Origin: Psammoneis japonica | Taxonomy: Eukaryota | Assembly: GCA_008632985.1 (NCBI GenBank) | Contig: QPGO01000058.1 | Coordinates: 310,001-374,000 of the forward strand | Reading direction: 5' to 3' | Length of the DNA stretch: 64,000 bases | The notes under the pieces: generated by a model | Told to the model about the DNA's origin: nothing | The model's input: only the letters and a program-made list of their open reading frames with translations | The model's database searches: none | Position numbers and translations under genes: made by a program | Shown here: piece after piece, positions 1,161 to 31,230 of the stretch | Numbering within the stretch: position 1 is the stretch's first letter | Layout of the letters: every line of letters starts with the position of its first letter

Positions 1161-1559
1161 GATGTGTTCCAGCTCTGGGTGGGACCTGTGCTGCTGAACT
1201 GTGACATCAATGGTTTTTTAGATTATGCCGCATGTCGCGCATGCAGATGGCTGCATGTGACATTCTATGAAATTGTTTCATGCTTCCTGTTTTGCGAAGC
1301 CAAAGGCTTTCTATTTTCAACATTTGTGAGAGTGAAAATGCGCTGGGTGTGTTCTTTGGTGTCTGCAGAACATGCCCGTGCAAACTGTCAATGACATGCT
1401 TCAAGTGTGAAGGAGGAGATGCATTCATAAAATTGCCTCTTTTTCTGTTGGTGATCATTTGTGTTTTGGTCACTTGATGAATTCACCATGGAGCTTGCAC
1501 ACAGAGTTCTGTCATGGGCCCAATGTCACACGGAGTCCCACCTGGGGCTGGAACCCATC
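1161..1559 (+). mobile_element. Non-autonomous TIR element (MITE family A), copy 1
   Basis: Imperfect ~25-bp TIRs GATGTGTTCCAGCTCTGGGTGGGAC...GTCCCACCTGGGGCTGGAACCCATC, flanked by a 4-bp direct repeat TCTC/TCTC. Colinear with 30836-31230. Confidence 0.85.
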
Positions 1560-1687
1560 TCTCAAACAAAGGCTCGTTTGGCGCTTGCATCTGCAGCGGG
1601 CACTGCAGTGTGTGTGCATCAAAAGGAAGGAGGAGAAAAGATGTGCTCGCACACTCCTTGGGCTTTCCAAGACAGGGTCAGAGCTTG

Positions 1688-1990
1688 TGCACACAACAAC
1701 ATGTGAAAAAAGTGAGGTGCGCAGCTCCTGTGGCAAGTGACAAGACAAGGGGCTCAAACAACACATTCTTCTTCTTGTGCAGCCAATGGCTTGAAGATGA
1801 AGTGGTCCCAGATGAGTTTGCAGCCACCCAACACTGAGCTGCGGTGCAGCAGGATGAGAGGTGTGTGCTCATTTGCGCTTCTTGCCACACTTGCGCAAGA
1901 GCGATGCTGCGTCCACAACACCAATCATGTCAAATTGATCTGTCCGCTGGCCACGCCCCACTCCCGGATTTAGATTCGGATTCCGCTCAC
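1688..1990 (+). repeat. ~300-bp dispersed direct repeat (second copy at ~2870-3255)
   Basis: Shared blocks GCACACAACAACATGTGAAAAAAGT, CATTCTTCTTCTTGTGCAGCCAATGGCTTGAAGATGAAGTGGT and GCCCCACTCCCGGATTT. Confidence 0.8.
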
Positions 1991-3325
1991 CACCTTCCAA
2001 CCTACCCATCTTTGCACGTTTTGGTTTTTTGCGGGTTTCCCTGCTCCCATCAACCTGCCAATGCACAATGCTTTGCTTTGTCTTGCAGCACCTTGCCACC
2101 CTTGAATCTGGAAAGTCATCTCACATGCCATTTTGCCAGTGGCAGCAAAACAAGAGAGAGAGCCCTTGAGCCAAGAGAGTGCAGTGGCCCTTGCTTGTAG
2201 ACAAAATCACAGTGGTGTGGTCATGCTTGTGAGCCTGTCTCATCTTCAGGAGGTTTGGTGCTTGCATGAATCTGCAGAGCTCTGCGAAATGCAAACAATG
2301 TGTCTGGGCACTCCACAAACAACTGTGTTTGTCAAGCTGTTGTCAGGGTCAAAGATGGCTCAACAAGATGCTGCTCAAGCACAAAAATGTTCAAGATGTG
2401 CACTTGCAAAGCTGAGAAAATTTTTGTTCAGACACAATGTGTGCTCACACTCAAGCTCCAGCAAACAAATGATCTCACAAGCACCCGCTTCTGCAGCTGC
2501 TGCTGCTGGAAAGAATGACACTTTTGGTGGGTTGCCACATGAGGTGACATTGTGCCACACATGCCAGAAGTGGTGTGTGCCAGCCACTGCACTTTTGCCC
2601 AATCTGGAAAGCTCATTTTGCTGTGTGTTTCTTTGTGGTGCACCAGCACAGCAGCCCTGCACAAGAAAACAAAAAGAGCAGAAGAGTGGCAAGCAGTGCT
2701 TGAGCAGTGTGTGCCAAAATGGCAGTTGATGCACTTGCAGGGCTTTTGGGCACAAGTTTCCCCACAGTGCATTTGGCAGCTTTGAGATGATTTTTTGTTG
2801 ACTCTGAGCATGGTGCCATTTCTCAGCTGAGAAAATGGTGGGGACAGAGGCAGGGCCGGCTTGTGCTGCTGCACACAACAACATGTGAAAAAAGTCAGCT
2901 GCAGCTCCTGTGGCACCAAGCAAGAGAGGCAAACATTCTTCTTCTTGTGCAGCCAATGGCTTGAAGATGAAGTGGTTTCTCAGATCAGTTTGCAGCCCCC
3001 AGCCATGGTGAACCACAGCAGCATGAGAGGAGGCATGTGGGCATGTGCGCTTCTTGCTGCACTTGCCCAGAGAGCAATGCCATGTCCATCATCCATTGAC
3101 CACACCACCCAATTGTGTCAAATCAATCTGTCTGCTGGCCATGCCCCACTCCTGCATTGTGGAATTTGGATTCATGCTCCAATCGTGCCAAATCGATCTG
3201 TCCGCGCGCTGGCCTCGCCCCACTCCCGGATTTGGTTCGGATTTATTCCGCACCTTCGCCTTTTATTTGCACGTTCGGTTTTTGGTTTCCCTCCCTTCTC
3301 ACATTTTCAATTTCTGATTTTACAC

Positions 3326-4873
3326 ATGGGAAGTGATTTAATTATACGACCTAACGACAACGATGTGCTGTTGGGAAGAGGAAGGGCCCTTCGAGAGCAC
3401 AGTGGAAATCGCCAATTCATTCAGCTTGTGCGAAGCTACAAGAGCACGTATGATGTGGCCCCAAAACGGCATGTCAAGAACGAAATTGCGCACCGAATTC
3501 TTGATGCCGTGCATGCGAGGCAGGGACGCTTCTTGGAATTCACTGAATTATGCCAATGGAAAGAAATAAGTTCAGAGCGAGCCTTGCTGAAAGTCAAACA
3601 GGCATTGAGGGATTATGTTTACCAAAGGCAAGAAGGTATACATGGCAATCCAAACATACCGCAGAATCTGCCGACAACTTCGGAAAGCATTCAACTTCGA
3701 AAAGAAGAAAACTTCTTGCCCGAAACAGGGGTGCGAGTAGTCCCCGGGAAGATTTATCACATTGATGGGACAGACAGCATTTCTAGAATATTATCTGATC
3801 CACGAGATGGGGAACAATGTGATGTTTTCGCTCCCGAACCGTCGAAACAGCTAGACGAGGACAACACCGAAGAGTCGCTTCTCAACCCATTGGATGACCC
3901 ATTTATGACGAGTCAGGAAGTTGTGGCTGCCGAATTCTTGTTTTCCATCATGACGGAATCATGGTCTGGTCAGAAGCTTCCAGAAGATTTTGCGCTCACA
4001 CAAGAGGAAGAGCTTGCTGGCGTCGAAGACCTCTTTGGAAAGTTATGCGTCGCGACACCCCCACCTACAAAACGCTTGAAAACTACAGCAGATCGCGTTC
4101 CATCCAAATTGTCGGAAATGAAGCAACATTTAGAACTCATTCCGACAGTTGAGAAACAGGCTTGGATAGAGGCGCGGCAGAAGGCGCGAGATATAGAAAC
4201 CAACGACCAACGAATGGAGTTGTTTCTGAAACGGGAAAGCAATGATCCAGAGAGAGCAGCACGACGGTTCATTACATATTGGGAAGAACGACTGCAGTTG
4301 TTTGGGCCAGATAAGTTCTGTCTACCTCTATCGCTCGATGGAGCTATGAAAGATGCAGAAGCAGCTGTTCATGCTGGAGTGTTTCAACTGCTTCCTTCAT
4401 TTGATGAGTCAGGACGGCAGTTGATATTTGAAATGCCTTGTAGGAATGACTACAACGGATACGACAGCCGCAACTTGATTCAAGCGTACTGGTATGTCCA
4501 TGACGTCATATCATACCACCCCAATGCTGCCAATGGCAAAGTAGTATTATATTTTGCAAAAGGCGCATCAGCGTGGGATATTGACTTTGAACTAGAACGG
4601 GCCTTTTCTCATCTCGAAGAAAATGTGTTTCCAGTACCACTTCGTGGATCACACGTGTTTTCTTTATCTACTATTTTGTCCGAAGTCATGTTGCCAGTTG
4701 TGCTTGCCCTTCATGCTCGGTATCATCTTGCAAGACTTATCATACACAAGGTCTCGGAGGAGAAGATTGTGGAGACGCTATCATACTATGGTATTTCCAA
4801 AGATGCAATTCCTCGGAATATGGGAGGGACATGCGATTGTCAGCACTTGGAATGGATTGAAAGTCATTTCTAA
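3326..4873 (+). CDS. DUF6824-domain protein with C-terminal CRAL-TRIO/Sec14-like region
   Basis: ATG at 3326 in ORF 2861..4873. PNDNDVLLGRG..HSGNRQF..KVKQALRD is the diatom DUF6824 pattern. FLKRESNDPERAARRFITYWEERLQLFG and IPRNMGG resemble CRAL-TRIO-type motifs. Confidence 0.8.
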   Translation: MGSDLIIRPNDNDVLLGRGRALREHSGNRQFIQLVRSYKSTYDVAPKRHVKNEIAHRILDAVHARQGRFLEFTELCQWKEISSERALLKVKQALRDYVYQRQEGIHGNPNIPQNLPTTSESIQLRKEENFLPETGVRVVPGKIYHIDGTDSISRILSDPRDGEQCDVFAPEPSKQLDEDNTEESLLNPLDDPFMTSQEVVAAEFLFSIMTESWSGQKLPEDFALTQEEELAGVEDLFGKLCVATPPPTKRLKTTADRVPSKLSEMKQHLELIPTVEKQAWIEARQKARDIETNDQRMELFLKRESNDPERAARRFITYWEERLQLFGPDKFCLPLSLDGAMKDAEAAVHAGVFQLLPSFDESGRQLIFEMPCRNDYNGYDSRNLIQAYWYVHDVISYHPNAANGKVVLYFAKGASAWDIDFELERAFSHLEENVFPVPLRGSHVFSLSTILSEVMLPVVLALHARYHLARLIIHKVSEEKIVETLSYYGISKDAIPRNMGGTCDCQHLEWIESHF

Positions 4874-5653
4874 ATGCTAGTCATAGCGCTCGTGCCACCT
4901 TGCACGCGAATTGAATGCCAAGCTGCAGTTGTTGTCTCACTTCTTCTCTAGTAGAGTGCATGTCGAGCAGGAACAAAGATTGAGCTATTGAAGAATGTGA
5001 CGGAGATTCAGATGCGTCGCACCTTTTTAGTTCGGCCAGGCGACGTCTAGACAATTGGAATGCATTTCGAATGTTGATAGAAGCTTACGAAGCTTTGGCA
5101 GTAATGGTCAGAGACGCGAGTACAAGAAATGGGTTGCTGCTACAGTCTCTAGTCATCTGCGGCAAGAGCTACCACATACTGGTAGATAGAGAGTCTCAAG
5201 TTATGAGAGCTACGGTAGCTACTGTAGCTGCTACTCTACTCTAGTAGGCTACTACTAGCTAGCTAGAGAGTAGAGACTATCCATCGATCTATTTCCATCT
5301 ATCTTTTATGATATGAATACGGTAGTGTCGTACAGGTACATGCAACTTTTCTTGATCGCACGATTTGACCCAATTTCAAATTTTGTCAGCCAACGGGTGT
5401 CACCGTAGAATTCAGTACCAGGTTTGGTCGCACTTTCATTCCACGTCTGACTTTGATTGGCTACCTTTTGACACCGCGACAGCACCATGTCACAGAATCT
5501 GTCTCTGAGAAACACAAAACCGACGAATCATCAAAGTCGCGATCGATGGTTTCAAACCGATTCGTATCCCAACGTTTGTGTCATTCTTAAGAATCGCATA
5601 CTAACCTTGACATCTGTTCCCGGTCCGTTTCGTCAAACGTTCTAGAAATAACA

Positions 5654-7426
5654 ATGGCAGAAGCAATGCTCGAAGAAGAACTGCGGTCTTCGCCGATACC
5701 CGAGCTAAAAATTCCTGTCGAGAATCCGCAAGACGAGAAGGGTGGCAAGAAAAGACGCGAAGTACAATCAGAAAAGGGAGGAGGGGGAGAAAATCGCAGT
5801 AAAACGGTGCAAATAATGGTACCCCCAAAGCGACAGAAGCTATCACAGACGGTGACTGCAAAGCAAGTCATTGATGGTACGTAGCAACGACTTGGTTATC
5901 GAACCTCAGTTGTTCTTTCTCAACTCGGTCGCTCTCACGTACGTCATAGCGTTGAGTGTCAGTGTATCGCAAGAGAGCCGATTTCACGCTTTATCTGAGG
6001 CTTTGCTCTCTTTTGGCCACAGCATTGAATGTGCACATGACGAGGAGTTGGCGACGGGGGCCGACGCTGTCATGACAAAACACCTGGCTTTTCTACTGTT
6101 TCGAAAGTACCACGTGGAGAATGAGCCATACGGAGACCCGCAAGATTCTGATGTTTCGACTGAAATTAGTCAAACATGTGAAGTTCTTGAGTTGCTATAT
6201 CGAGGGTCTGTAGAGGCCATTGCAGCATCGTTTGACGGCGTGTATCAGGAACTACTTCCCCTGTTAATTTGCATAATTGACAAGGAGATTACTTTTCGAT
6301 TCTCGGGTAAGACGAGAAAGACCGAGACGACGGAGGCACTTCCTCGGGCAATCCTCTGTCTTCAGTGTCAGTTGGCAACACTAGTGAATCAAGCTGGGAG
6401 AACAAGGTTGCTGCGGTGGAATCCGTAGATGAATTGAGAAGCGGGGCCGTCTCACCACCTTTACCCGGAACACAATATGGTGGGAAAGAAGCCGGGGATT
6501 TGGCACTCCGAAAGGCAACCAAAATACTTGGCCACTTTGCCAGAGTTGAAGCAGCCACACAGCGAATGGCTCACCACCCCGGTCTTTTGTCTTGCCTAAT
6601 CAGTGTCATAACGTTCCTCCCATACGACGGAATTCCTGCGCAATCGCGTCTAACTTCACTGTGGATCCTGGGGAATCTAGCCTGTAACACCGAGAATATG
6701 GTAATGATGGCATGCCAACCTGGGATAATAAATACGCTTCTCATGTCGTTGGTTCGCGAAGTCCATGAAGACGATGCCGTGGAGGTGAAGATGGAGGTAT
6801 TGCGTTCCCACTCGATTGCTGCTCGAGCGTTGCACAATCTTTGCTGGGCACCAGAGAACAAGATTCCAATGTCTGAGAATAACAGCCTAATTGAAGCTTT
6901 GGTGAAGACATCCTTGCTCCGAACCCCACCGTTCGAGATGCGGATGCGGGGTGTGGCGGACATGATGGTGCAGGCTCGAAGACATTCTGTCAGTGCGTTG
7001 AGACAACTTGCTTCCGCTCCACGAAGGAACAAGATTCGAATTTGCAGTTACCGAAATGCGAAGATCTTGGATGTGTTGACGGATATTGCCAAGAACGATC
7101 CAGACTCACTTGTCAGCGAGAAGGCGATTGCTACCATTCACGCCTTGGCGTGTGTGGACACCGCCGAACAAATGATGGCAAGGCCAGAGCTTCTCGCTTT
7201 GCTGAAAGACACAATGCTTTCTGACGATGCGGCTGACGAGTATATGAAGAATAAGAAAATGGAGGCATCTGGGACTTTGCTTGTGTTGGAAAGAAGCATA
7301 TCAGAAGACATGCCACAATTCGATGCTCTGAGGGAGCTGTTGAACAGTGTTTATCCTCCTGCGCTAGAAAAGGACACGGAACAAAGCGACATGGGGGGGA
7401 GCGAATCATCGACTCCCGTTGCCTAA
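5654..7426 (+). CDS. Armadillo/HEAT-like repeat protein (spliced)
   Basis: ORFs 5654.., 5871.. and 6365..7426 join through putative introns ~5877-5949 (GTACGT..CATAG) and 6307-6365 (GTAAG..TTCAG, in frame). ARM-like segments LWILGNLAC, ARALHNLCW, VSALRQLAS. Confidence 0.7.
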
Positions 7427-7564
7427 CAAGGGAAAATTAACATTGATTCTGTTATAATCACCTGCAGTATCGGTGCCTGAGTCGTCATGTCCCATTTAAT
7501 CCGAGCTAACTCTTCTATCGTGAGGAGATTGATGATGTCGCGCAATTTCCGTAGCTGTTGAAGT

Positions 7565-11161: not shown

Positions 11162-12889
11162 ATGTCGCTGTATTCAATCTTGTCAAAACTCTTGATGCTT
11201 CTCCTTTGCTGGCCACATGCCATTCACGCTCGAGAAGGATCAGATCAACGGCCCAACTTTATTTTCATATTTGCCGATGATTTGGGCTACGGGGATCTCA
11301 AGTGCTATGGTCATCCATATGCCAAAACGGACAATCTCGATCGCATGGCACGTGAAGGAACATTGTTTCGGTACTTTCACACGGTGGGCAACATTTGTCC
11401 GCCAAGCCGAGCTGGATTCATGACGAGTCGATATCCTTCGTGGTTTCCCAATTATACACCAGATTATGGCTTTATGGGGGCAATCACAGTCACGCAAATT
11501 CTCAAGGACGCGGGCTACGTGACGGGGCACATTGGGAAGTGGAACATTGGTGATCCGAAACCCGACAAGAGCAATGAAGGGTTCCCATACGATGCCTACG
11601 GCATGACGGATGTACGAGTCACAGGCGATGGGCGTACGGATCCGCGTGGAAAGGAAGGACCGCGTTTTGATTTAGCAATGGAATTTGTGGAGCAATACAA
11701 GGACGTGCCGTTTTATCTCAATGTTTGGATGTACGCGCCACACTCGCCGGTTGAGCCGCCCCAATACTTGATTGATGAATTTGACGACTTGGATGTGGAC
11801 CGGAGCTTGTTTGGGGAACACCATCAGGAGAAATTTGACAAAATTAGTCGTTTGGGTGGAAGCATAAACACTGGAATGAAAACATATTTGGGAGAGGTCT
11901 ACGGTATGGACATGCAAATCGGAAGGCTGCTGGACAAGCTCGATGATCTTGGCTTGACAAACGACACCGTCGTTTTGTTTTCAAGCGATAACGGACCGGC
12001 TAAGATTGACCATAGGGGAGAAATCAACTTTGGATCGGGATATGCAGGGGGACTTCGTGGGGGGAAGCACGCGTTCTATGAGGGTGGTGTTTCAGTTCCG
12101 TTCATCTTGAGGTATCCGGGTCATGTCCCTGCGGGAAAGGTAAACAATGCTTCCTTCACTTCAGCTCTTGATTGGCTTCCAACAGTGGCAACATTGGCAA
12201 AAGCAAATTTCTCTTGGGATCTTGTTGAGGGGGAAGACGTGAGTGATATTTGGTTTGGAAGTAACCGGTCTCGCAAGAAGCCCACATTTTACCAAGATCC
12301 CGGTTCGGGTAGCATTGCAGTGCACTATGGTGGGTGGAAGATGTATGATTATGATGATAGGCTTTACGATTTGAGCACTGATCGCAATGAGTTCGTAAAC
12401 TTATACGACGACGAACCGGAAATTGTGGCGGCTTTGAAGGCCCTCAAGTCACAATACAAGGCCACGATACCGGATGACCATCGGTCTGGGGGCAGCAATC
12501 CTCTTCCGTTTGACCCACTTCAACCAGTGACGCACCTTGTGATTCCACAGGTGCTTCTGGACAATGCTGTGACTGCTCCGCCGTCGTCTCCTCCAACATC
12601 GTCTCTGCCAACATCTTCTCCTCCAACGTCGTCTCCGCCAACATCTGCTCCTCCAACGTCCTCTCCTCCGAACGCGTCTCCTCCAACGTCGTCTCCTCCG
12701 CCGAACGCGTCTCCAACGCGCCCCCCGACACCAAGAGCGCCGTGGTTGACACCACCTACAAACCCTTTCGGGACACCAACGACGAGTTTCAATTCTCCCT
12801 CGGCTTCACCTTCAAATATCGCCAGTTCTTGCCTGATAAGCTTTTTCGCTGCTGCTTCAGTACTACTGGGTTACGCATTGTCGGTTTAA
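11162..12889 (+). CDS. Secreted/cell-surface sulfatase (arylsulfatase family) with Pro/Ser/Thr stalk and hydrophobic C-terminus
   Basis: Signal peptide, FADDLGYGD, CPPSRAGFMT (CxPxR formylglycine motif), GKWN, SSDNG, LRGGK..YEGG. Repeated SSPPT units, then a hydrophobic tail. Confidence 0.92.
   Translation: MSLYSILSKLLMLLLCWPHAIHAREGSDQRPNFIFIFADDLGYGDLKCYGHPYAKTDNLDRMAREGTLFRYFHTVGNICPPSRAGFMTSRYPSWFPNYTPDYGFMGAITVTQILKDAGYVTGHIGKWNIGDPKPDKSNEGFPYDAYGMTDVRVTGDGRTDPRGKEGPRFDLAMEFVEQYKDVPFYLNVWMYAPHSPVEPPQYLIDEFDDLDVDRSLFGEHHQEKFDKISRLGGSINTGMKTYLGEVYGMDMQIGRLLDKLDDLGLTNDTVVLFSSDNGPAKIDHRGEINFGSGYAGGLRGGKHAFYEGGVSVPFILRYPGHVPAGKVNNASFTSALDWLPTVATLAKANFSWDLVEGEDVSDIWFGSNRSRKKPTFYQDPGSGSIAVHYGGWKMYDYDDRLYDLSTDRNEFVNLYDDEPEIVAALKALKSQYKATIPDDHRSGGSNPLPFDPLQPVTHLVIPQVLLDNAVTAPPSSPPTSSLPTSSPPTSSPPTSAPPTSSPPNASPPTSSPPPNASPTRPPTPRAPWLTPPTNPFGTPTTSFNSPSASPSNIASSCLISFFAAASVLLGYALSV
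12575..12730 (+). repeat. 15-bp coding tandem repeat (SSPPT)
   Basis: Repeated TCGTCTCCTCCAACA-like units inside the sulfatase ORF. Confidence 0.85.
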
Positions 12890-12990
12890 AGACAACATGT
12901 GTGCCAAAGGGATTAAATCTTGCCTTTTGCGTGCGAGCACCGCTATCTTTACTAGGGTTCTTATTTTTAAGTATCAATGGAAATTGTTTC

Positions 12991-14688: not shown

Positions 14689-15387
14689 GACGGGTGAACT
14701 GTGGATATTGACAATGCACATTACGTCGTAGAACAAGGAAGAGACAGAGTTTGGCTTGTCCAATCTGTTTCTTTCTCAAGCATCTTAATCCATGTCCTTT
14801 CATACAGTGAAAACGGCGAGGTTCGCTTTGAATGCTTTCGTTCGCAGCCACAGATAGTGATTCTCGTCTCTGTTGCTCTATTACCTTCTTCGAAGGTTAG
14901 GATATCCACTGCAGGTCTTGCAGCTGCTGTGATGTGTGTTTGGATTCGGTCAACTGGACCAATCACAGCTTCCCGTTCGTCCTCCCTCGCCTCCATCTCT
15001 GCTGTAGAGAGATTAGCTGCTACCGGTAGCTACATTAGGCTAGAGTAGCTACTATACAGAGAGTAGGGTAGTAGCTAGTAGATAAAGCTCTCTACTCTAG
15101 AGATGAGAAGAGATAGACTAGAGAGAGTACTGTAGTCTAGACCTACGAGTCCTACAGTGTAACCGGCCGCAGTGTCCAAAAATCAGAGATTCAGGATGGT
15201 TTGAGGCCGCCTGAGCGAAGCACATGATGGAATATCCTCGTCACTGAATATTTCACTATTCACTTTTCAGGGTGCTGAACAACGAACGCGGAAGCACACC
15301 ATGAAAACCTCTCATGATATGATAATTCTTTAGTTCTCATCTCGTTTCTATTTTATGTGGAGATATGCCTCTTGACATTCAAAAGTC

Positions 15388-17813: not shown

Positions 17814-17968
17814 AGTAGAGACTACGGAGAGGGACGCAAGAAAAGTAGAAAGAAAAAACGTTCAAGTACGCAAGACTTGATTCGCCCAGTAGTAAATGTT
17901 GGGTAGAAATTATTCATAAATAAGTGTGTAGAATCAGATTGTGGGCCGCTAACTTCCTCGGATACTAT

Positions 17969-19035: not shown

Positions 19036-20719
19036 ATGACTGATAAAGCTGTTGCAAACGAGGAAGTACCTCTGGAGTCGTCACCTCCTGAGCGAGACGC
19101 CGCATCCGAGGTGCCGATGGACTCAACTGTCCAAGCCATCATGGTGCCGCTGGGGGATTCCAGCGATCAAGACAACTCTACAGTTACAGGAGCTCTTTCG
19201 GTCGATGAAGAAGGAATCGCCGCACCTGTGTCTTTGAGGTCGAAGAGGACCAGAAGGAAAGGCCGGAAGGACGGAGAAGAGCAAAGCACTACTCGCGCCA
19301 AGCGCAACGTGCTTTTGTTCCTGCTGGTACTCATGATTGCGATAACGGCCGCTTCCGTGGCAGCCTTCGTTGTCATTAGCAAGAACGGCGAATCTTCCGA
19401 TGCATCGAAGAGCCAACAGGGTGATGGTTCTGCCGAGACGACTCAGAAACCCGACGCCCCTGCACCCACGGCATCTCCCGTAGTACCCGTTACTGGACCT
19501 CCCACCCAGGCGCCCGTCACGTCTGCTCCTCAAAACCCCACTGCAAATCCCACCCAAGCCACCATGAGCCCCACCGTTGACCCTGCTAAGCAGGTTTTGG
19601 TGGATTTCTTTTCCAACGTGTCGGGAGCTACCGCCTTCTCGGATGCCACTTCTGCGCAGTCTCGTGCCGTTGATTGGCTTGTCAAGAACAGCGACATTGA
19701 GACCCTTCAACAGCCGGCCTTGATCGAGCAACGCTACGCATTGGTTGTAATGCAAATGGCCCTGGGTGGTGATTTTGCTCTCCCCGCGGGTGTGGATGAG
19801 TGCCGCTGGGCCGGTGTTACATGCGAGAACCAGAAGGTTGTGTCGATCAATTTTGCACGATCCAACCTGAATGGATTCATTCCCGACGAAATCAGCTTGC
19901 TGTCTGAGTTGGTAGCATTAGACCTGGGCGAGAACGCAATTGGTGGCGAGATCCCCGAGTCTCTCTACTCCCTCACCAAGTTGCAGAAAATCTACATGCA
20001 CCAAAACAAGCTGACTGGGGAGATTTCCGAATCGATTGGTAATCTTTTCAGCTTGACTCATTTGTATTTGGGAATGAACCAGCTCTCCGGACCCTTCCCA
20101 ACCTCGCTTGGTTCTGTAAATGGTCAAGGACATCCTTTGCGCTATCTTGTTTTGAACCACAACAATCTCACAGGCAGCCTTCCTTCCAACCTTCGCTGGC
20201 GTGCCATGTTCTATCTGGACTTGTCCCACAACAAGTTTTCCGGTCCTCTTCCTGAAGATTTTGGTGGGAGAATGACCGGTGCCCGGTTGATGTACTTGAA
20301 TAACAACGAATTTAGTGGAGATATTCCCATTGGACTGGCCACCATGGCCGGCGCACGGTTGGAAGTCCTGCACCTGAACGACAACGAGTTCACGGGCAAG
20401 CTCCACCAGCAAACATAAATACTCGTAAGTGTGCTTTTTTTCATTGATTCTATGCTCTGTCGAAATCAAATGATCACTCACTCACATTCTTGCTCTCTGT
20501 ATAATGTGTGTGTTTTGTTTGACAGTATCCATGACTTTTCAAAACAACAAGTTTGACGAACTCGGAAAGAATGTCTGCAAAATGCAAGTTTTGGCTGATG
20601 AAGGCGAAATGATTAATCTCAAGGCCGATTGCGCAATTTGTACTTGCAAGTACAGTTGTGAAGACTGTTCACCGAACCGACCGAACCTTGGTAGGAACAT
20701 TTTCAAGCGATTTCCTTAG
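19036..20719 (+). CDS. Single-pass membrane leucine-rich-repeat protein, paralog 1
   Basis: TM segment, Pro/Thr stalk, QSRAVDWL..QRYAL, ECRWAGVTC cap, LxLxxNxLxGxIP repeats. Intron 20425-20525. Probable 1-bp error near 20405. Confidence 0.88.
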
Positions 20720-21245
20720 ACGGTAGGGAACTTGTTCGATTTCTCTAGAGCTCCATGGCCCGTACTCTATTGTGGCGCCAGCTCGGTTATAAACTACTGT
20801 ATATATCGACTACGATCTCATTTTCTAGCGTCAACCTATCGTTTTCCTTCAGTCTATTTGTCCTACAATGTCCGTGTCCTCTTCGTCACACGCATGTGTT
20901 TTTTCTCCTTTTACATTGTTGCTGCACTCGCAAAGCAATTTGACTTCGACGAACCTCCCGCAAGGCCGATCGCGCAATTTGTACTTGCAAGTACAGTTGT
21001 GGAGACTGTTCACCGAACCTTGGTAGGAACACTGTCAATCGATTTCAGTAGACGTTAGAGCACTTCTTCGATTTCCCTAGCCAGATGGCCCGTACTCTAT
21101 TGTGGTGCCAGCTCGGTTATAAACGATTTATCGACAATCTTATTTGCTGTCGTCAGCGTGTCGTTTTCCATCCCGCCCATCCTTCAGTCTATTCTTCCTG
21201 CACTGCCCGTGTCCTCTTCGTCACCCAAACGTGTTTTTTCTCATT
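20620..21245 (+). repeat. Tandem duplication of the LRR gene 3' end/UTR (~20620-20910 and ~20960-21245)
   Basis: CAAGGCCGAT.GCGCAATTTGTACTTGCAAGTACAGTTGTG, ACCGAACCTTGGTAGGAACA and ATGGCCCGTACTCTATTGTGG.GCCAGCTCGGTTATAAAC each occur twice. Confidence 0.85.
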
Positions 21246-21299
21246 ATACATTCTCTGAGTTGCAATTCCATTTTGATGTTAAGTTTTCTCGCGGCAGGC

Positions 21300-24200
21300 A
21301 TCATTGGCATTTTCTGCTTAACTCTCATCTCATCACAGCGTTTGGTTTTCATGGTGCCACATCTTTCATTTTTGCCACTCTCTTGTTTTTCTGTCCCTGT
21401 GTCACAAGAAGTTGACCCAACATCAAGCCTTTGCACAGCTCTGGCTTTTGCCACTTCTGCCGCTCAGCCAACTCTCTCTCAACCTCACTTGCTCTGAGGG
21501 GTGCTGGCTGTGCGAGGCAGAGAGTGCTTGTCGTGCACAACACTGAGAAAGCCTCCTTCCTGCCCTTCAGCATGAGCACAAGATAGCCAGCTTTTGTGCC
21601 TTCCTCTTCTCTCTGGTGTTTGGCTGTCACACCGGCAGCAGTGTGCCCTGCACCAAAGACAGGAAAAGAAGAAAAAAGCTGTGCAGCACAGTGTGGCCAT
21701 GTGCTGACTGCACAGTGAGAGCAATTTTTTTCTCACTTTTGCAGCATCATGTTCTTTTTTGCAAGAAATGGCAGTGGCAACAGCAGCAGGAAGTGGCAAA
21801 TGTGCAAGCAGGGGGCAGCAAAAAGCAGCCACTTGGTGCTGTCATGACAGCTTGTGGCAGCCTGCTCAAAAAGAGTTGCAGTTTCTTTTTTTTTCAAAAA
21901 GAACTTTCAGTTTTCAGCCCAGTTGTGCCACAATTGCACTTTGTGCTGATGTGACATGTTTGCACATGCTGGATGTGACAAACTTTTGTTTTGAAGGGTT
22001 GCTTGGTGTGCAGGTGCCAAAGACACATGCAAGTGCAGACTTGTTGCAATGGCGGGTGGTGGCCAACTTGTCCACCATTTCCTCTGAGTTTGGGATCCAA
22101 CCCAGCAGATGCTCTGGCATGGCTGGCTCTCTGCCCACATGTGGTGTTGTGCTGTGCTGGTTGTGCATGTGTGAGAGAAAACAAAGAGATGGGAAAGTGA
22201 GGCTGAAGAGCTCAAGCCATTGTGTCCAATGCAACAAAGTTTTAAAAGGAAAAAATCAGAGGCACCGCACCAAAAACTGAGGATGGAACAGAGAAGCAAA
22301 AGAACCTTTTTTTTGTTTTGAATGAGCTCTCAGCCCAAACAAGCCAAGAACAGCCTAAGACAGAGGAGCTCTCACAAGAAAAAAAGCCACTTCAAAGGAG
22401 ACACAATGGATGTGGCTGGGAAACAGCCAATCCAATTGAGAGAGCAAATTGCTCACCAAAGCTGTGTGCGCAGTGCCATCTGAATGAAGCAGAGGCAACT
22501 TGGCTTGCTTGCGACATTGTGCATGATTGGGCAGGTGTCTGTGGGGTTCCACCCCTGCTGCCATTTTGCAGCATGCCACCCCCCTTGCATCACAGCAGTG
22601 TTTCATGCCTTCTCTGTGCTTGGATTCCTCAATGGCCACTGAGTCTTCATGGAGTGCATTGGCTTGTGCCCCCTGTTGTTTTGTGCCAGTTGCACACAAA
22701 TCTCTCCCCACAGCATGCTGAAGCTTGCTTCTTTTCTTGCACTTCACCTCTTGTGTCAACCCAATCCTAGCACATCAATCTGAGTTGGCTCTGGGCTCAC
22801 ATGCAGTGATCACCCACATGAAAACACACGCAACTGAAGCCTGTTTTGTCATGTCAAATTTTGCAACACCCATCATGCCCACCAGCAGTGGTGTCTGGGA
22901 TTCATTCATGTGATGACAACATGCCTGCACATGCAGCACCCGATCTCCTCTTGCCCCACAAGGAGAAAGAGCAATGTGTTTGCAGCTGGGGCATGAAGTG
23001 CCATGATGTCCAAGAGAGTTTTCATGCTTGAGCCAAAGCAGGCAAAGACAAAGCTTGTGCCAGTCAATGTGTGTGTCTGTGGCTTGGAGGCGACTTGGAA
23101 AAAGTGGAGAAATGGGGAGTGAAGTGGCACTGGTGAACACACCTGGGAATGTCTTGCAATGCCAATTGACAACTTGGTTCAGGCTCCTTTGGCAAGGCAT
23201 CATTGGAGTGTCAATCAACTGTGCTCTTTTGATGGTGGCAAGAACCCCTCTGCACCCTTGCTGTTGGCAAAGATGACAACTCTGATGGTGGTGGTTGACC
23301 ATCAATTCTTTATGATGAAGGGTTCTGACAAGCTGTGTTTTCACTGTCCCAATGTCCCAATGAACTCCTTGTTGATTGAGACAAAGACTTCACCATGCAG
23401 CAAGCACAACCAAACGTTTGATGAGCACAAAGCATTTGCCAAGCTAAAAGGGTGCCAAGACAGATTTGAAGGGCTGAGTTGATTGGCAGTGCTGGCACTC
23501 TTGACTTGTTTTGACAAAATCTTGCCAAACCTTGCACCAAACTCACCAAAGTTGACAAAGTTGCCAAAGCTGACAAAGTCACCAATCTCACTGAAGCTGA
23601 CAAAGTCACCAAACTTGTTGCCAAAGTGGACAAAGTTTCCAAAGTTTGGCAAAAAGTTGAGAAAGTCGACAAAGTCACTAAACTTGCCAAAGTCACCAAA
23701 ATTGATGAAATCACCACAGCTGACAAAGTTGCCAAAGTTGATGAAATCATCAAAGTTGGTGAACTCGCCAATCTTGCTAAAGCTGACAAAGTCACCAAAC
23801 TTGCCAAAGTGGACAAAGTCACCAAATCTCAGTGCTGACAAAGTTGCCAAAGTTGCCAAAAGTTGAAAAGTTGCCAAACTTGCCAAAGCTGACAAAGTCA
23901 CCACAATTGATGACATCACCACAGCTGACAAAGTTGCTAAACTCACCAAAGCTGACGAAGTCACCAAACTCACCAAAGTTGACAAAATTGAAAAAGCAGT
24001 CACCAAAGTGGACAAAATCGCCAAAGTCACCAAAGTTGACAAAGACACCAAAGTTGACAACAAAGTCACCAAACTTGACAAAGCTGACAAAGTTGAAAAA
24101 GTTGCCAAAGTTGACAAACTTGCCAGAATCGCCAATGGCAGTCACTGTCGTCAAAGGTGAGAGACACACAACATGCCAGCCAGAACCCTTGTGTTTGATC

Positions 24201-25177
24201 TGACTGTGGGTGACAGCATCTCAATTGTGTTTGAAATCAGAGGTTGCCACAGAGGAGCCGATGTGCCTGATGATGAAAAGATGAGACTGGATTTTCTTTC
24301 ACACCATGTCACTCACCCCAATCCAACCTCTGTTGACCCCACTCCTGGGCCCACCCCGACCTCCATCGAAACTCAAAGTTCTTGGCCCAGTGACAGACCA
24401 AGCAAGAGTGCAGCAAGATCACAGACATTGGAGAACAAACTGCTGTGTGTGGCAAATGACAATGAGTCTGGAGCTAGCCAGCACACATCACATCATCTCA
24501 ACTGCATTGCCGCCATGGATCGAGACTTGTTTTGGTCACTGTGAACAACGAATTGCACAGCGGACTGGAGGCCTCAAGTTCGTTGCTACATTGTTTCCTT
24601 CCTGGCAGATTTTTCCTCAAGCACCTTATGGTGTAGACCCAGGTCCGACACGGGAACGCGTTCGACCCACGTGAGCGTTCCTCCACGACCTTCTGCTGAT
24701 TCCTGGCGATGCGAGCCAAACCATTTGCATCGAAATGCGAAAGCAACAGCCCTTGTTGTCTTCAGCAAACTCGGTGCACCAATCCTGAACCTGTTCTCCA
24801 ATGCGGCTGCAGTGATCAAGCGGTTCCGCTTCCGAAATCCGCTCCCAAACTGGGGCACACGGACCAAAGACCGAAACCTGTCTGCAGAGACCAGTGCAGT
24901 CGCATCCTTTGCATCTGGGTTCGCGTCATTCATTGGAGTTCATTGTGTTGAAATGGAGACGCTTTTCCACAAGGCTGCCGCTCTCATCAATCACCAGAAC
25001 GAGGCAGCAGCACTGGCGATGCTTGCTGCGGTGACCGTGAGGACGAAACACGTTGGCAGTCATGATCGGATGGTTGACAGCAATGTGTTCTCGGTTCTTG
25101 CTTTTCCATGTTCGCAGCTGTCGTGTGACGGTCTTGGAGCCTCACGTTTTCAGGCGCCATCTGTCGAGAAACGTCAT
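21300..25177. mobile_element. Decayed repeat/TE block 2
   Basis: Strong TpA depletion and Tyr-free ORFs. CpG is depleted up to ~24500 but retained in 24636-25177. Confidence 0.75.
23505..24130 (+). repeat. ~9-bp-period degenerate tandem array (AAAGTTGAC/AAAGTCACC/AAAGTTGCC/AAAGCTGAC)
   Basis: Visible periodicity over ~630 bp. Translates as KVD/KVA/KVT or TKS/PKL repeats. Confidence 0.9.
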
Positions 25178-25693
25178 TATACACATGCAACATCATTCGC
25201 TCTACGGTCATCGTGAGGGCATCGATCGTATGGGCGGGCCCGCCTCACGACGTTTTCAGGGGCTCCGTTTCTGTCGAGAACTCTGAGAATTCTCGTCATG
25301 CATGTATCATCATGCATGTATCATCATGCATTACCATTTTAAAATATAAAAATGATAGAACTTCAGTGATGAATATAAATTTTATTTTCACAGCCGTTAC
25401 CGCGCGCATGCAATGGAATTTTGGCGCCAAGAGCTGGTCAAGAGTCAGAAAAATTCCAATGAAACGTGGCAGTGTGAGGTGTGAGCTCACAAGACTCGTT
25501 TGAAACTCAAAAAGAGGCCAACGGAATGTCCGAGTTTGACCACGAGATCAGCTTCCGATCGGCCCATTCTTTTTGGTTGTTACGAGAGTACGTACATTCG
25601 CATTGCTAAGTATCCCCACCTGACTCTCTTGCGTAATTGCATTTTCAAAACATGACACACAAATTTGCTGTAAGACTGGAAGAATATCAGGAG

Positions 25694-27278
25694 ATGTCCG
25701 CTCTTGAACGAGAAGACGCATCTGATGCTAATGAACAGATAGGCTCCAACAATTGTGAAGCCTTCATGGTGCCGCTGGGAGGCACCAGCGATCAAGGCTT
25801 TTCAAGTGGTGCAGTGTCTCTTTCAGTCGGCGGCGAAGAAGAAACCACCACACCTGTGTCTTCACGCTCGAGGAGGACCAGGAGAAACAACTCCAAGGAT
25901 GGGTCAACCAGGACTGCTGCATCGAAACGCCGTGTTTTCTCGCTCGCACCTATGATTGCTTTATTGCCGCTGTTGCAGCTGGCGTCCTTGTGATTGGCAA
26001 GAGCGGTGCATGTTCCAAACTATTCAGCAGTCCACTAGATGCTGGTCCCAAGACGCTTCAGGAACGCGACTCCTCAGGAGAAAGGACCACCCTGAGGTCC
26101 GATAGGCCTGCCCACTGAACCAAAAAGACGATCCCGCCCAAGCCACCAGGAGACTCAACGGCGTCAGGGAGACTTTGGTGAATCACTTTGCCACAATTTC
26201 TGGGCCTGACGCCTTTGCCACTCTCACGTTGGGGCCTGGTCTCACGTTGGGGCCGTCGCCGCAGGATCGCGCTGTTAACTGGCTTGTCCAGAACGACGAC
26301 AGTGCCACCCTTCAACAGCCGGAATTGATTGAGCAGCGTTACGCCTTGCTTGTCATGCAAATGTCTCTTAACGCTAACTTTTCTGTCCCCATGGTGAATG
26401 AGTGCGAGTGGGCTGGCGTAACGTGCGATGAAGGAAACATTGCTGCTGTGTCGGTCAACTTTGCGCGATCCAACCTAAACGGTGTCATTCCCGACGAAAT
26501 CAGAGTGCTGACCGAATTGGAAACGTTGGATCTAGGCGAGAACGAGATTCGTGGTGAGATTCCCGATCTCTCTACACCCTTACCAACTTGCGGAAGATCT
26601 TTCTGCATCAAAACAGGCTCACTGGAGGTATTTCAGAATCGATCAGTAATATTTTCAACTTGACGCACTTGTATTTGGGAATGAACCAGCTATCGGGACC
26701 CATCCCCCGCTCGCTAGCGTTCGAATCTGGTGAAGGACGTCCATTGCGTTACGTTGTCTTGAACCACAACCAACTCACTGGCGATGTTCCTTCCGACCTT
26801 CGTTGGGCTTCGGTGTTCTACATTGACTTGTCTCACAACAGATTATCCGGTCCCCTTCCCGAAGACTTTGGCGACAGGCTTGGCAAAGTCCGGGTGATGT
26901 ACTTGAATAACAACGAATTCAGTGGAGATATTCCCGAAAAGCTCGCCGAAAAGACCGAAACTTCGATGCAAGTTGTGCACTTGAACGACAACAACTTTAC
27001 CGGGACAACCCCATCCGCCAACGATGCGACTGGTAAGTGTGCTTTCTTTCATTGATTCTATGCGTTGTCGAATCAAACTGTCACTCACATTCTTGCTCTC
27101 TGTACAATGTGCGTTTTGTTTGACAGTCTCCATGACTTTTCAAAACAACAACTTTGACGAACTCGGAAAGGATGTTTGTAAGATGAATGTTTTTGAAGAT
27201 GGCGAAATGGTTAATCTCAAGGCCGATTGCTCAATTTGTGATTGCGATTACAATTGTGGAAACTGTATATCAGGTTAG
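25694..27278 (+). CDS. LRR membrane protein, paralog 2 (several frameshifts; pseudogene or assembly errors)
   Basis: Homologous to 19036-20719 (MVPLG, PVSSRSRRTRR, QDRAVNWL..QRYAL, ECEWAGVTC, LRRs). Same intron at ~27032-27125. Frame breaks near 25950-26170 and 26570. Confidence 0.8.
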
Positions 27279-27511
27279 CCGTAAATCTGCAGATTGCTTC
27301 TTGCTGTACGACAATATTTTTAGTTTGATTTCATAAGACTTAGAGCACTGCTTCGATTTCTCTAGCTATATGGCACGTACTTGAATATGGTGTCAGTTCG
27401 ACTATAAACGATTTATCGATCACCATGTTATTGCTAGCGTCAGTGTATTAGTATTCTTTCTCTAACACGTTACTTCTCAGAGGACAGTATTTCTTTGGAA
27501 CTGGGCTCTTG

Positions 27512-28167
27512 CTATGAATGAACCCCGTCTTGTCGTGACATGAGCGATATTCCCACTTCCTCGTCTCCTTCTTCTCCTTCGTGGTCCGATTCATAAATAG
27601 TTTCGTTCTCGCCCGGTGGCCACCGCCCTTCTCGCATGAGAGACGCCAAGAGCGTTTGTTTTCCAATGGCCGTGACGACCACAATCCCCGAACCCTGCAC
27701 AACGTGGCTCCCGTAAAAGATTTGCGTCGGTTTCGTCGTTCCGTCGATGAAAGGGATGTGGACCTTGGCTTTGTCTCTCCGGTAATGTGCCTTACATCAA
27801 TCAGCATGTCATGGTCTACAGCCAAACAGACGCAGTCGGCCGGAACGATATCGCCTTCTTCTAGCCTCACAATGTCACCCGTCACTACTCCGGCGGCATC
27901 GTATCGTACCCACTGTCCGTCGCGTTTAATCTCGGCATCCTCAGGTTGAATCTGTTTAAATAGCTTCATACTAGGAATGTGCTTGATGCACGGCAACAAG
28001 CAACACACCCATGCAGGGCATTTAATGGGTGGATCCACAACATTGTAAGATTCGTCGTTTATTGCCTCCATTCGTCGTTTCGATGCTTCATCGTTCGACA
28101 AGCCATTCTCAAAGTCCGTCTCTAGTTGACTTAAGAGGTCCTGTTGTGCTTTGGAGAGCGTTGTCAT
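27512..28167 (-). CDS. Stand-alone P-type ATPase N-terminal plus actuator-domain protein
   Basis: GLSNDEASKRR, VVTGDIVRLEEGDIVPADC, ITGET. After a frameshift near 27730 it continues FYGSHVVQGSGIVVVTAIG to the stop at 27512. No DKTGT-containing P domain in the corrected frame. Confidence 0.75.
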
Positions 28168-29556
28168 GTTGAAAACAACGGCGCTGAAACTAAGGTCATT
28201 GCGAATTGCAAATCTGTTGCGCATGTGCAAGGTGCAAGATCGCAACCGATGCGACGTGGGCGGGTGCGCGGTAGCGTTTTCCCGCCATTTTTTTTATTTC
28301 ATTTGAGAGTGATTTCCGGGCTTCTTCACTCTGCTCATCCACGACCAAAACTGGAGCCTGTTTCATCTACGCAGGATCAGCACGATGAGGGAATCTTGGC
28401 AGTGGAAATGTGCTGGGTGCGCACATCGCATCAGATCTTCTCATTGTTCCTGATCATTCATCACGGCCACGCACACCACTTTCGAATCACCGTTGCTGCT
28501 GTCGGGCGTCTCGTTTTCGAGCCCATTGCACCCACGGTGCTGGCCTGGGCAGGCCATGTCTCTTTGATGCTGCCCTCAACACACCATGGATGATGTTTGC
28601 AGTCATTCCAGCCACATCCATGGCATCCATTGACAAGAACGGAAGCCCTGCGACAGAGAAGCGCTTTCGCTTCATGATTTTTGGGGCAAGCTGCACGTTT
28701 TCTTCCTTTTCCCCTGGTTTCAGCAAACAGCTCCAACTCTTCACAGACAATTTTCCACGGGCGTGGGTCTTGTTTGCAGCAGATGCAAAGAAAGGGAACA
28801 TCTTCCCCTTCACACTTGTGCTTTGCCTTCTTGAACGGTGGGAGACAGGAGAGTTGGGCGTCGGAGGGCATGGTGGCACTTTTGGAGCAGATGCTTGACA
28901 TTTTGCAAGGAGGAGGGTTTTGGCTCTCTCTGTGACAATTTTGTTTCTCCTTGTTGTGTTTGTTGTTTGTGACATTGTTTTTGATGTGTGCAAATTTGTC
29001 TTCGATCGTTGTGGACAATTGCACGCAAATCGAGCACCACATGCGATGGGTCCATCAGCAATTTGTTGTTCTGCACAGATGGAGACACAACAACAGCAAC
29101 ACAACAGACAAAACGAGAACTTTCATCATGCAATGGGAAGTCAAGTGCCGCAATGGTGAAAACAACATTTGTGGAGTTCTTGCTGAGACTGCTCTGCACT
29201 GCGGCAATCATCTTTTTGAACGCGGGCTGGCACTCAGTTTTTGAACATGACAAGCAAGCACAATGACCTTGTCACATTGAGCAATCCTCCAGCTCAATTG
29301 TCAATGACTGCCACACCCATTGCAGAGGAGGGTGTGTGATGAAAAATGTCATCTGCCCGCAACCATCTCCAGAATGGAGCCAGTGCAAGCCAAGGATGAG
29401 CAGCACTGTTGCCAGCAATGACAAAGTCTTTTTGGTTTTGTTGATCAAAATGATGATCAGGACGATGCAACGAGTCTGGACAGGGCTGCACAATGGAGTC
29501 TGAGTGGGACAATGCAACGGATCACTGCACGACGAGATCAAGCCAAGAGTGATGAG

Positions 29557-29949
29557 GATGTGTTCCAGACACAGGCGGGCAAATCCATGTGACATTGAGC
29601 CCGTGGAATTCTGCGTGCGAGCTCCGCAGCAAAATTGTCAGGCAATGCATGTGTCAATGATGCCAACAGAAAATGAGGCAATTTTGTGAATGCACAAACT
29701 GTCCATGATTGAAGCACATCATTTTTATTCAGCCAGGTGCATTCTTCAGACATTGCAGAATGCACCTGGTGCATTGTTGTGTTCCTGCAATTTTGTCAAA
29801 TGAAAATCTGCGGTTTTGCAAAACAGCGAGTCTGGAACATTTTTTGGAAGATCACATGCAGAAATGCACACTCGAAACATGTGACGGATGACAAAAATGA
29901 CTGTGTCACACGTCAGCACTGCAAGCTCCCGCCTGGGGCTGGGTGCATC
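29557..29949 (-). mobile_element. MITE family A, diverged inverted copy
   Basis: GATG...CATC ends, flanks TGAG/TGAC. The interior is reverse-complementary to copies 1 and 2 (GTGACATTGAGCCCGTGGAATTCTG, CCAACAGAAAATGAGGCAATTTT). Confidence 0.7.
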
Positions 29950-30232
29950 TGACAGTGCCAGCTGCATCCCACACCTTCCAAGTTTGAAGAGACACCTCAA
30001 TGAGATTGCTGCTTGCAAGAAATGCATTGAAAAAAAGCGTTGATGCTCCCATTCTCCTGCAGTTTGTTCACATCTTGAAGAGCAACAACTTCAATCAAGC
30101 GATGCATCAACCAATGTTGCAGAGCAGTGCAAAGGTTCAAGGAAGAAAAATGTGCCAAGCTGGAGCAGGTTCAGAAATCAGTGGCACAGATTGTGACATG
30201 GTGGAATGATTGGCTGTTGCAGCAACTGAAGG

Positions 30233-30487
30233 CCTGTTCCAGCCCCAGGTGATGAGAAATCCATCACGTGAGAGGCTGATTTTTTGTGCAGTTTAGCACA
30301 ATGAACTCCTTCAATTTTGGCATCTTTTCAAAAATCAAAAGGCAAGTGTGCACCCAAAATCACATGCAAAGTGCACACTTGCCCTTCGATTTGGCAAAAA
30401 AAGGATTTTGAAAAAGTTCAATGTGCCAAATGCAAAAATGGGAAATGATGGGTGTCAACCCTGTGCGCATCACCTGGAGCCAACAGG
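30233..30487. mobile_element. Small TIR element with internal hairpin
   Basis: Ends CCTGTTCCAGCCCCAGGTGATG / CATCACCTGGAGCCAACAGG. Internal perfect 13-bp inverted repeat GGCAAGTGTGCAC..GTGCACACTTGCC (30341-30383). Confidence 0.55.
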
Positions 30488-30835
30488 AGTCATTTGAAGA
30501 TGTTGCATGAGTCACAATTGATGTTTTGCACAAGGAAAAACAAAAAATCTGAGCTGAAATGCTGTCTGACCTACGGCATTTTTGCCTTCACCATGTGAGT
30601 CAAACTGCCGTCAATCCAGATGGCATTTCAATTGATCACCCAAGAAGTTGACATTCACACACGGATGGATGGATGGAAAGACTGACAACAATCATTTTTG
30701 GTGCTCTCCTGCAAAATTTCTGCGTGATGACTCTCAGGACCTGACTCACCTTCAATGCAGTGCCAGCGATTTTGATGGTCTTGCTCCACACCAACCAAAC
30801 CAAAATGATGCCTGAGCCTGCCATGAAACATTGCA

Positions 30836-31230
30836 GATGTGCTCCAGCTCTGGGTGGGACCTCACACTGCTGAACCATGACATCAACAGTTTTTTAGATT
30901 GCGTCGCATGTTGCGCACGTGCATTTCTGCATGTGACATTCTGTAAAATTGTTTCATGCTCCCTGTTTTGCGAAGCCAAAGGCTTTCTATTTTCAACATT
31001 TGTGAGAATGAAAATGTGCTGGGTGCATTCTTTAATGTCTGCAGATGCACCCAGGCAAACTGTCAATGATGTGCTCCAAGTGTGAAGGAGGAGATGCATT
31101 CGTAAAATTGCCTCTTTTCCTGTTGGCAATCATTTGCATTTTCATTGCCAACAAATTTGCTACGAAGCTCGCACACAGAATTCCACGGGCCAAATGTCAC
31201 ACGGAGTCCCACCCAGGGCTGGAACCCATC
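30836..31230 (+). mobile_element. MITE family A, copy 2
   Basis: Same TIRs as 1161-1559, flanked by TGCA/TGCA. Confidence 0.85.

Follow-up and report, generated by a model that had tools for sequence, protein, structure and literature searches.

A TpA-free, CpG-poor repeat compartment rich in TG/CA swaps in a diatom-like algal genome

Do the copies of a transposon record how the dinucleotide TpA disappears from chromosomal DNA? This question is raised by a 64-kb stretch of genomic DNA (the window; all positions are counted from its first letter) that carries several copies of a miniature inverted-repeat transposable element (MITE). A first-pass annotation of the sequence had compared two of these copies and proposed that TpA sites of the ancestral element were lost to TpG or CpA, on either strand and at the level of DNA, with different sites hit in each copy. 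We compared this proposal column by column with the MITE family and with the composition of the surrounding DNA. The notable result is a TpA-free, CpG-poor repeat compartment in a second algal lineage (diatom-like), rich in places that read TG in one repeat copy and CA in the other (TG/CA swaps). The general claim of DNA-level TpA loss is supported indirectly, by the TpA-free islands that form this compartment and by swaps confined to them; only one or two of the columns that had been named appear to be truly ancestral TA.

TpA-free islands and the MITE family inside them

Across the whole window, 1607 TA dinucleotides were observed where 4329 are expected. Nine islands with a combined length of 19,924 bp hold 53 TA (observed/expected ratio, o/e, 0.04) and 315 CG (0.27), together with 2192 TG (1.84) and 2280 CA (1.76), and the other 12 dinucleotides lie at o/e 0.84-1.25 there. 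For the remaining 44,076 bp, o/e is 0.52 for TA, 1.00 for CG, 1.17 for TG and 1.21 for CA. TA is highest in non-island DNA between genes, with o/e 0.8 at 5001-6000 and 15001-17000, and since these stretches keep it, the TpA deficit is a feature of the compartment rather than of the genome at large. The longest runs without any TA measure 1406, 1358 and 1046 bp. Pyrimidine-purine (YR) steps as a class are retained in the islands, where 4840 were seen and about 4980 are expected from base composition; the YR total is thus kept and only its split between TA, CG, TG and CA is shifted, which is the pattern that transitions produce. TG plus CA outnumber TA by a factor of 84 and CG by a factor of 14, so that, if these ratios represent an equilibrium, TA is removed several-fold faster than CpG relative to its creation. 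The four MITE copies described below and other repeats fall inside the islands, which include the following (no strand assigned):

1-3143: TpA-free, CpG-poor island, broken only by MITE copy 1 (5 TA); TA-free run 2198-3244
21446-25105: TpA-free island in which CpG o/e is 0.10 at 22001-24000; contains an array of 9-bp tandem units at 23530-24135
28333-32922: TpA-free island with MITE copies 4, 2 and 3 inside; no TA over 1358 bp at 28368-29726 and over 1406 bp at 31594-33000
34977-39621: TpA-free island; TpA o/e 0.01-0.06, CpG o/e 0.10-0.26
42571-45223: TpA-free island; CpG o/e 0.03-0.04 at 43001-45000
54517-55510: short, TpA-poor island
59599-60429: short, TpA-poor island; TA-free run 59489-60443

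The tandem array at 23530-24135 consists of about 48 nine-base units (CAAAGTTGA-like) that differ from each other largely through TG/CA swaps, and it overlaps a stop-free frame of 266 amino acids (aa) on the minus strand (23341-24141) without a Pfam match.

Using blastn with copies 1 and 2 as queries, we found four MITE copies in the window. The two copies that had been annotated are present at the positions given for them, and two further, older copies had gone unlisted:

1161-1559, plus strand: MITE copy 1, 399 bp; target site duplication TCTC at 1157-1160 and 1560-1563; 5 TpA, 7 CpG
30836-31230, plus strand: MITE copy 2, 395 bp; target site duplication TGCA at 30832-30835 and 31231-31234; 6 TpA, 10 CpG
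31288-31675, plus strand: MITE copy 3; flanks GCTG/GTTG; 2 TpA, 13 CpG
29557-29949, minus strand: MITE copy 4, inverted; flanks GTCA/CTCA; 1 TpA, 11 CpG

Copies 1 and 2 share 83.7% identity across 405 columns, and copy 4 is 71% identical to copy 2. The ends of copy 3 are 82-83% like those of copy 2 and its interior has diverged, which would fit either an older copy or another subfamily. The terminal inverted repeats (TIRs) span 25-29 bp, and in copy 2 the 29-bp arms at 30832-30860 and 31206-31234 show 90% complementarity. The 4-bp target duplications differ between insertions and are perfect for copies 1 and 2, whereas those of copies 3 and 4 contain a single mismatch each. With its inverted ends and a 4-bp duplication flanking each copy, the element is a TIR transposon of the MITE type, present in many copies and probably non-autonomous. 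It resembles MITEs of TIR superfamilies with 4-bp duplications in being short, in its inverted ends and high copy number and in having no recognisable coding capacity, and differs from them in that the target duplications found here are TCTC and TGCA, not TTAA. An autonomous partner or transposase for the element was not found within the window, and the one open reading frame (ORF) that overlaps copies 2 and 3 (31106-31567) gave no Pfam match.

The family is very abundant. In the public run X1, which contains 65% of the 31-letter words sampled from 26000-34000 and was the best of the runs compared, 1848 contig pieces match copy 2 at 80% likeness or more; run X2 gave a single contig piece. The summed word depth in X1, which is not equivalent to copy number, is 95-250 in the left flank, reaches 247,631 within the element and is back at 445 past 31231, and loose contig ends lie at 30836 and 31230, the borders of copy 2. 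A search of metagenomes with a conserved 21-base stretch of the MITE returned 0 matches.

The family majority and TG/CA swaps

From the X1 contigs a majority letter was derived for the family, to which copy 2 is 94.4% identical. The lowest listed share of a letter is 21%, so at places without a listed variant the letter of copy 2 is inferred to account for about 79% or more of the depth. This majority holds 18 CG (o/e 0.78) and 6 TA (o/e 0.23), two of the latter being unphased mixes of TG and CA, and the number of TA drops with the divergence of the copies, from 6 and 5 in copies 2 and 1 to 2 in copy 3 and 1 in copy 4. The corresponding CG counts are 10, 7, 13 and 11. CG of the majority is lost at 8/18 places in copy 2 and 12/18 in copy 1, whereas transitions at non-YR sites affect 2/196 and 8/199 places, respectively (1-4%); CG sites have therefore been lost 10-20 times as often as other sites, and post-insertion CpG decay of the copies is plain from these counts. 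With a TpA o/e of 0.23 in its majority, the family would already have been TA-poor at the time of its amplification.

Where the majority retains a residue of TA, the columns are more decayed than those of CG: the shares of T at the first and A at the second place are 87% and 62% at 31184-85, 52% and 54% at 31026-27, 63% and 46% at 31135-36, and 60% and 59% at 31149-50. Firm majority-TA sites are lost at 2/4 places in copy 2, 1/3 in copy 1, 4/4 in copy 3 and 4/4 in copy 4, site numbers that are tiny throughout. Further support for TpA loss comes from TA-majority columns of the family at which the copies of the window hold TG or CA, such as 31184-85, where at least 49% of the family depth is TA and where copies 2 and 4 read CA and copies 1 and 3 read TG.

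Of the 61 aligned positions that distinguish copy 1 from copy 2, 55 show transitions, and 30 of these transitions form 15 double differences of the TG-versus-CA type. When 55 transitions were placed at random on copy 2, 20,000 trials gave a mean of 1.6 double differences and a maximum of 7, so the earlier remark that such differences are frequent holds. Judged by the family majority, the 15 double-difference columns include one of CG (31127-28, G 71%) and one that is 99% TG, and none that is firmly TA; mixes are present at 31026 and 31149, and the others would read TG or CA as in copy 2, several of those without listed variation falling in a low-depth stretch (31040-31167).

We then compared four island repeat pairs (74-86% identity) with two genic paralog pairs (75-76%). 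The numbers of TG/CA swaps were:

MITE copies 1 and 2, island pair: 15 swaps
MITE copies 2 and 4, island pair: 10 swaps
Repeats at 1688 and 2870, island pair: 5 swaps
Repeats at 31954 and 38832, island pair: 18 swaps
Genic pair 1: 1 swap
Genic pair 2: 4 swaps

Swaps thus account for 96/231 transition differences (42%) in the island pairs versus 10/231 (4%) in the genic pairs (Fisher p = 3e-23). Differences of TA versus TG or CA are common in the genic pairs (19 and 7), where they are stable. The segmental duplication used as a genic control (19062-20833 and 25678-27446) comprises an LRR gene with its downstream region; its halves are about 70-80% identical, lie about 6.6 kb apart and have retained TA and CG. 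The repeat pair at 1688-2042 and 2870-3292, with 75% identity, is located wholly in TA-free DNA a short way upstream of the DUF6824 gene. Two further repeat features surround an FkbM-type methyltransferase gene:

31954-32474, plus strand: left arm of an inverted repeat; partner at 38337-38832, 79% identical, with 18 TG/CA swaps between the arms
33077-33156, plus strand: gene-side repeat copy beside the FkbM gene, just outside the island; the island copy is 38199-38274

The second of these offers a contrast between a gene-side and an island copy, as all six of the differing YR steps are CG (4) or TA (2) on the gene side and TG or CA in the island. As a whole, the inverted repeat pair (79-85% identity) flanks both the FkbM-type ORF (33331-34218) and the island 34977-39621; its left arm has about 600 bp extra, and the repeat around the FkbM gene ends at 33156. 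A decayed gene copy that would allow changes to be polarised against protein homologs was not found inside the islands.

Explanations for the loss of TpA

Our search found one prior report of TpA-specific hypermutation of foreign DNA, a preprint on two viral insertions in the chlorarachniophyte Bigelowiella natans (Mettrop et al., bioRxiv 10.64898/2026.01.13.699255). It reports that 231 of the 302 new mutations in mutation-accumulation lines fell in two integrated viral regions, and all but one of these 231 were A-to-G or T-to-C changes, all such changes being at TpA, with a hypermutation rate of about 6e-7 per site per generation. The same source describes 124 clusters of TpA-poor, CpA- and TpG-rich 1-kb windows elsewhere in that genome, a subset of low-TpA genes in which transposon domains are enriched, and a 144:14 excess of A/T-to-G/C changes, and proposes an ADAT2-like DNA adenosine deaminase, with one residue linked to DNA editing (bioRxiv 10.64898/2026.01.13.699255). 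A literature search on diatoms and TpA, A-to-G genome defence and DUF6824 found nothing further on such a process.

For the window, an account with two processes, CpG decay and the loss of TpA to TpG or CpA within the repeat compartment, is the one we consider reasonably likely, judging from composition and alignments. The compartment would contain two unstable pyrimidine-purine steps, each decaying by transitions into TG or CA. The first process would be CpG decay, most simply through deamination of methylated cytosine. The second would turn TpA into TpG or CpA through an activity directed at repeats or foreign DNA, its chemistry most likely being adenine deamination at 5'-TA-3' on either strand, as in B. 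natans. Long exposure of the compartment could have brought TpA near to extinction (o/e 0.04) and left the MITE majority itself TA-poor. Once TpA is exhausted, a G-to-A or C-to-T change at TG or CA would create a short-lived TA that resolves either back or to the product of the other strand, while a T-to-C or A-to-G change would create a short-lived CG that decays likewise, and the result in both cases can be a TG/CA swap. Swaps and CpG decay together account for most of what separates copy 1 from copy 2.

Several observations weigh against this account. The majority has no more TA (6) than copies 1 (5) and 2 (6), and therefore there is no net post-insertion loss of TA in these two copies. In copy 2, three TA have even arisen where the majority has TG or CG, at 30896 (common to copy 1), 30945 and 31162; the loss of TA per site looks as high as that of CG in the counts above, but in copy 2 it is offset by these gains, and the TA sites that can be counted number only 3 or 4 per copy. 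Scored against the majority, copy 1 carries swaps at 11/72 TG/CA sites, about four times the two-step prediction from its non-YR rate (8/199); therefore deeper subfamily differences or a higher rate of the first step must contribute, and subfamily differences at columns that were once CG or TA probably do so. The majority is itself made of depth-weighted letters rather than a copy count, drawn only from contigs with at least 80% likeness to copy 2, and its shares are listed for 40 of 103 variable places. X1 may moreover be the same data as those behind the assembly of the window and hence not independent of it. Finally, none of the 32 island ORFs had a significant Pfam match (two weak ones, E 0.04-0.07, under the curated cut-offs), and no viral or transposase domain was found among them, so that the label 'foreign DNA' derives from the MITE copies alone.

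That CpG decay alone is responsible, with all excess TG and CA and all swaps arising from ancestral CpG in methylated repeats and low TpA as a by-product, is unlikely in our view. CpG decay of methylated transposon copies is known from the vertebrate Alu and L1 families, and the MITE family resembles them in having CG in the consensus where single copies hold TG or CA. CpG is at o/e 0.27 in the islands versus 1.00 outside, the majority restores 8 CG relative to copy 2 and 12 relative to copy 1, and decay of CpG yields T and A that are part of TG or CA and form no TA. This explanation would, however, leave the loss of TpA and the swaps at TG/CA-majority columns unaccounted for. The depletion of TpA exceeds that of CpG sixfold (84 versus 14), and there are 1.4-kb runs without any TA, although CpG decay would leave existing TA in place. 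CpG o/e in the family majority is 0.78 while that of TpA is already 0.23. CG is the majority at only 1/15 swap columns, and another column is 99% TG. From retained or half-decayed CG and TA pairs, about 3-4 swaps are predicted between copies 1 and 2, and 15 were seen.

The literal form of the first-pass proposal, in which the named columns were ancestrally TA and a different TA was lost to TG or CA in each copy after insertion, is quite unlikely. The letters that had been compared are where they were said to be, namely CTATGAAA (1265) and CTGTAAAA (30941), GATTAT/GATTGC, CACCATGG/TGCTACGA, AACTGTGAC/AACCATGAC, CAATGGTT/CAACAGTT and GTGTGTTC/GTGCATTC. From the first pair an ancestral CTATAAAA with a separate TA-to-TG change in each copy had been reconstructed. 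The family majority reads CTACGAAA, with T, A 90%, C 82% and G 56% at 30942-45: the first TA stands, since 90% of the family depth has TA at 30942-43 where copy 2 has TG, a real TA-to-TG change in that copy, whereas the second is a CpG in the majority (30944-45) that was turned into TG in copy 1 and into TA in copy 2. At 31026-27 (GTGTGTTC/GTGCATTC) the family is a mix of TG and CA (T 52% and C 48%; G 46% and A 54%). For adjacent places, the C share at the first plus the G share at the second minus 1 equals the CG share minus the TA share, and the value obtained here, -0.06, identifies the residue as TA (about 6%) rather than CG, so that a slight ancestral TA component is compatible with this column. 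The column 31184-85 described above, which had not been cited, also speaks for ancestral TA, with at least 49% TA in the family and CA or TG in the copies.

The other pairs give different ancestors. The majority is CG (C 83%, G 77%) at 30900-01, where GATTAT and GATTGC were compared, and CTGCGG, hence TG and CG, at 31161-65 (CACCATGG/TGCTACGA), where copy 2 has CTACGA and the majority shares are G 94% at 31162, G 75% at 31164 and G 96% at 31165. It is TG (T 99.6%, G 99.4%) at 30876-77 (AACTGTGAC/AACCATGAC), and at 30887-88 (CAATGGTT/CAACAGTT; CAATGG/CAACAG) the CA of copy 2 would represent about 79% or more of the depth, a value that follows from the cut-off of the table. Together with the CG majorities at 30944-45 and 31127-28 (G 71%), most of the named columns thus have a multi-copy consensus of CG or TG/CA and not of TA, the outcome that the proposal itself had named as speaking against it. 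The idea behind it could still apply to some columns at the level of a subfamily older than the sampled majority.

Selection or filtering, by which TA-bearing repeats would be purged through a TA-reading nuclease, UpA-dependent RNA decay or the use of TA as a target, we regard as very unlikely. A MITE majority that is itself TA-poor, as if before amplification, and the lack of net TA loss in copies 1 and 2 would fit it, but the YR total is conserved (4840 versus about 4980) with only its split shifted, the number of TA declines with copy age, and the gene-side and island copies of a repeat differ as TA versus TG. Moreover, a mutational process of exactly such a kind has been seen directly elsewhere (bioRxiv 10.64898/2026.01.13.699255).

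An artefact of assembly or base calling, with TG or CA called in error at modified bases of repeats and left unpolished for lack of unique short-read mapping, would account for the confinement of the pattern to repeats, its sharp edges, the strand-symmetric TG and CA outcomes and the recovery of only 65% of the sampled words in the best run, but it is highly improbable, since the contigs of X1 (records of up to 315 kb; listed pieces at a depth of about 25-114), a run that is possibly the assembly's own data, also give a TA-poor majority and carry letters private to copy 2 at a depth of about 110-270 (30876 C, 30877 A, 31119 C and 31162 A). Fungal repeat-induced point mutation (RIP) converts CpA to TpA and so raises TpA in repeats; with TpA o/e at 0.04 and CpA at 1.76, the islands show the opposite direction, and RIP was rejected. 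Island ancestors that were very rich in GC or CpG were likewise rejected as the main cause, as TpA o/e in the majority is 0.23 though that of CpG is still 0.78.

Returning to the account with two processes, one may tentatively go further and regard its TpA-directed part as a genome defence in a second, unrelated algal lineage (diatom-like), similar to RIP and opposite in direction, which would have driven about one third of the window, rich in repeats throughout, to near-zero TpA. Held with the same reserve is the view that this putative defence works through adenine deamination and, after the exhaustion of TpA, keeps turning mutations at TG and CA into strand swaps. With RIP it would share the restriction to transitions, the specificity for a dinucleotide, the targeting of repeated or foreign DNA and distinct compartments beside normal genes, and it would differ in that TpA is removed and CpA and TpG are raised.

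The closest known counterpart is that of B. natans, and when the thresholds of the preprint were applied here, 22/64 1-kb windows passed both and formed 5 clusters of at least 3 (bioRxiv 10.64898/2026.01.13.699255). The two systems are alike in the level of TpA, about 0.27% of dinucleotides in the islands and 0.18% in the low-TpA coding-sequence subset of B. natans, and would also be alike in having transposon-type sequences among their targets and in the resolution of TA to TG or CA according to strand. They differ in density, which is far higher here, with 5 clusters per 64 kb here versus 124 per whole genome there, and in that CpG is co-depleted here, while CpG goes unmentioned in the available part of the preprint. 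Viral genes were not found in the window, and de novo mutations were observed in B. natans, whereas direction and rate are here inferred from sequence. The window does not come from B. natans itself, because TpA makes up 2.5% of its dinucleotides versus 6.0% there, its genes contain few introns and no identical proteins were found in the database.

If the islands are the product of such a process, then it is not a curiosity of a single species and would have done much to shape the composition of genomes in a further large group of algae. Ordinary transposons would be among its targets, and it would co-occur with CpG decay. TG/CA swaps would provide a second, easily scored footprint, by which the process could be found in any genome, with no need for mutation-accumulation lines. 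In practice caution is called for as well, as TAA and TAG vanish from the repeats of such genomes and long spurious ORFs arise.

Genes and reading frames around the islands

The window contains 75 stop-free frames of at least 150 aa. Because TAA and TAG are nearly absent from the islands, frames there are long and overlapping, and the length of an ORF is no evidence of a gene here. The frame at 2831-4873, for instance, is probably real only from near 3250, where TA reappears.

Domains recognised in the long ORFs, most of which are uninterrupted, are DUF6824, alpha/beta hydrolase, sulfatase, LRR, formin FH2, THOC5 and FkbM methyltransferase. A collection of 5.8 billion proteins held no near-identical match to the sulfatase, THOC5 or DUF6824 proteins; the best matches were 58% identical for the sulfatase and 40% for THOC5, and the DUF6824 protein has its best named match in a Nitzschia diatom (37% identity across 21% of the query), so that 'diatom-like' is a weak assignment. 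An atlas look-up of THOC5 gave no clue to taxonomy. Metagenome loci with relatives of the sulfatase were only three in number and distant (29-33% identity), and were not used.

The sulfatase ORF carries at its 3' end a tandem repeat of 15 bp (CTCCTCCAACGTCGT-like, 12558-12722) that encodes a tail rich in Ser, Pro and Thr. A TA-free run of 289 bp (12468-12757) occurs at this place, within otherwise normal genic DNA. The formin-like ORF at 47443-51654 (minus strand) contains five tandem coding repeats of 186 bp (47859-48753); ahead of the FH2 domain, these yield 8 matches to the profile of CCDC53, a WASH subunit. The FH2 domain itself is divided between two ORFs, pointing to one short intron near 47265-47443.

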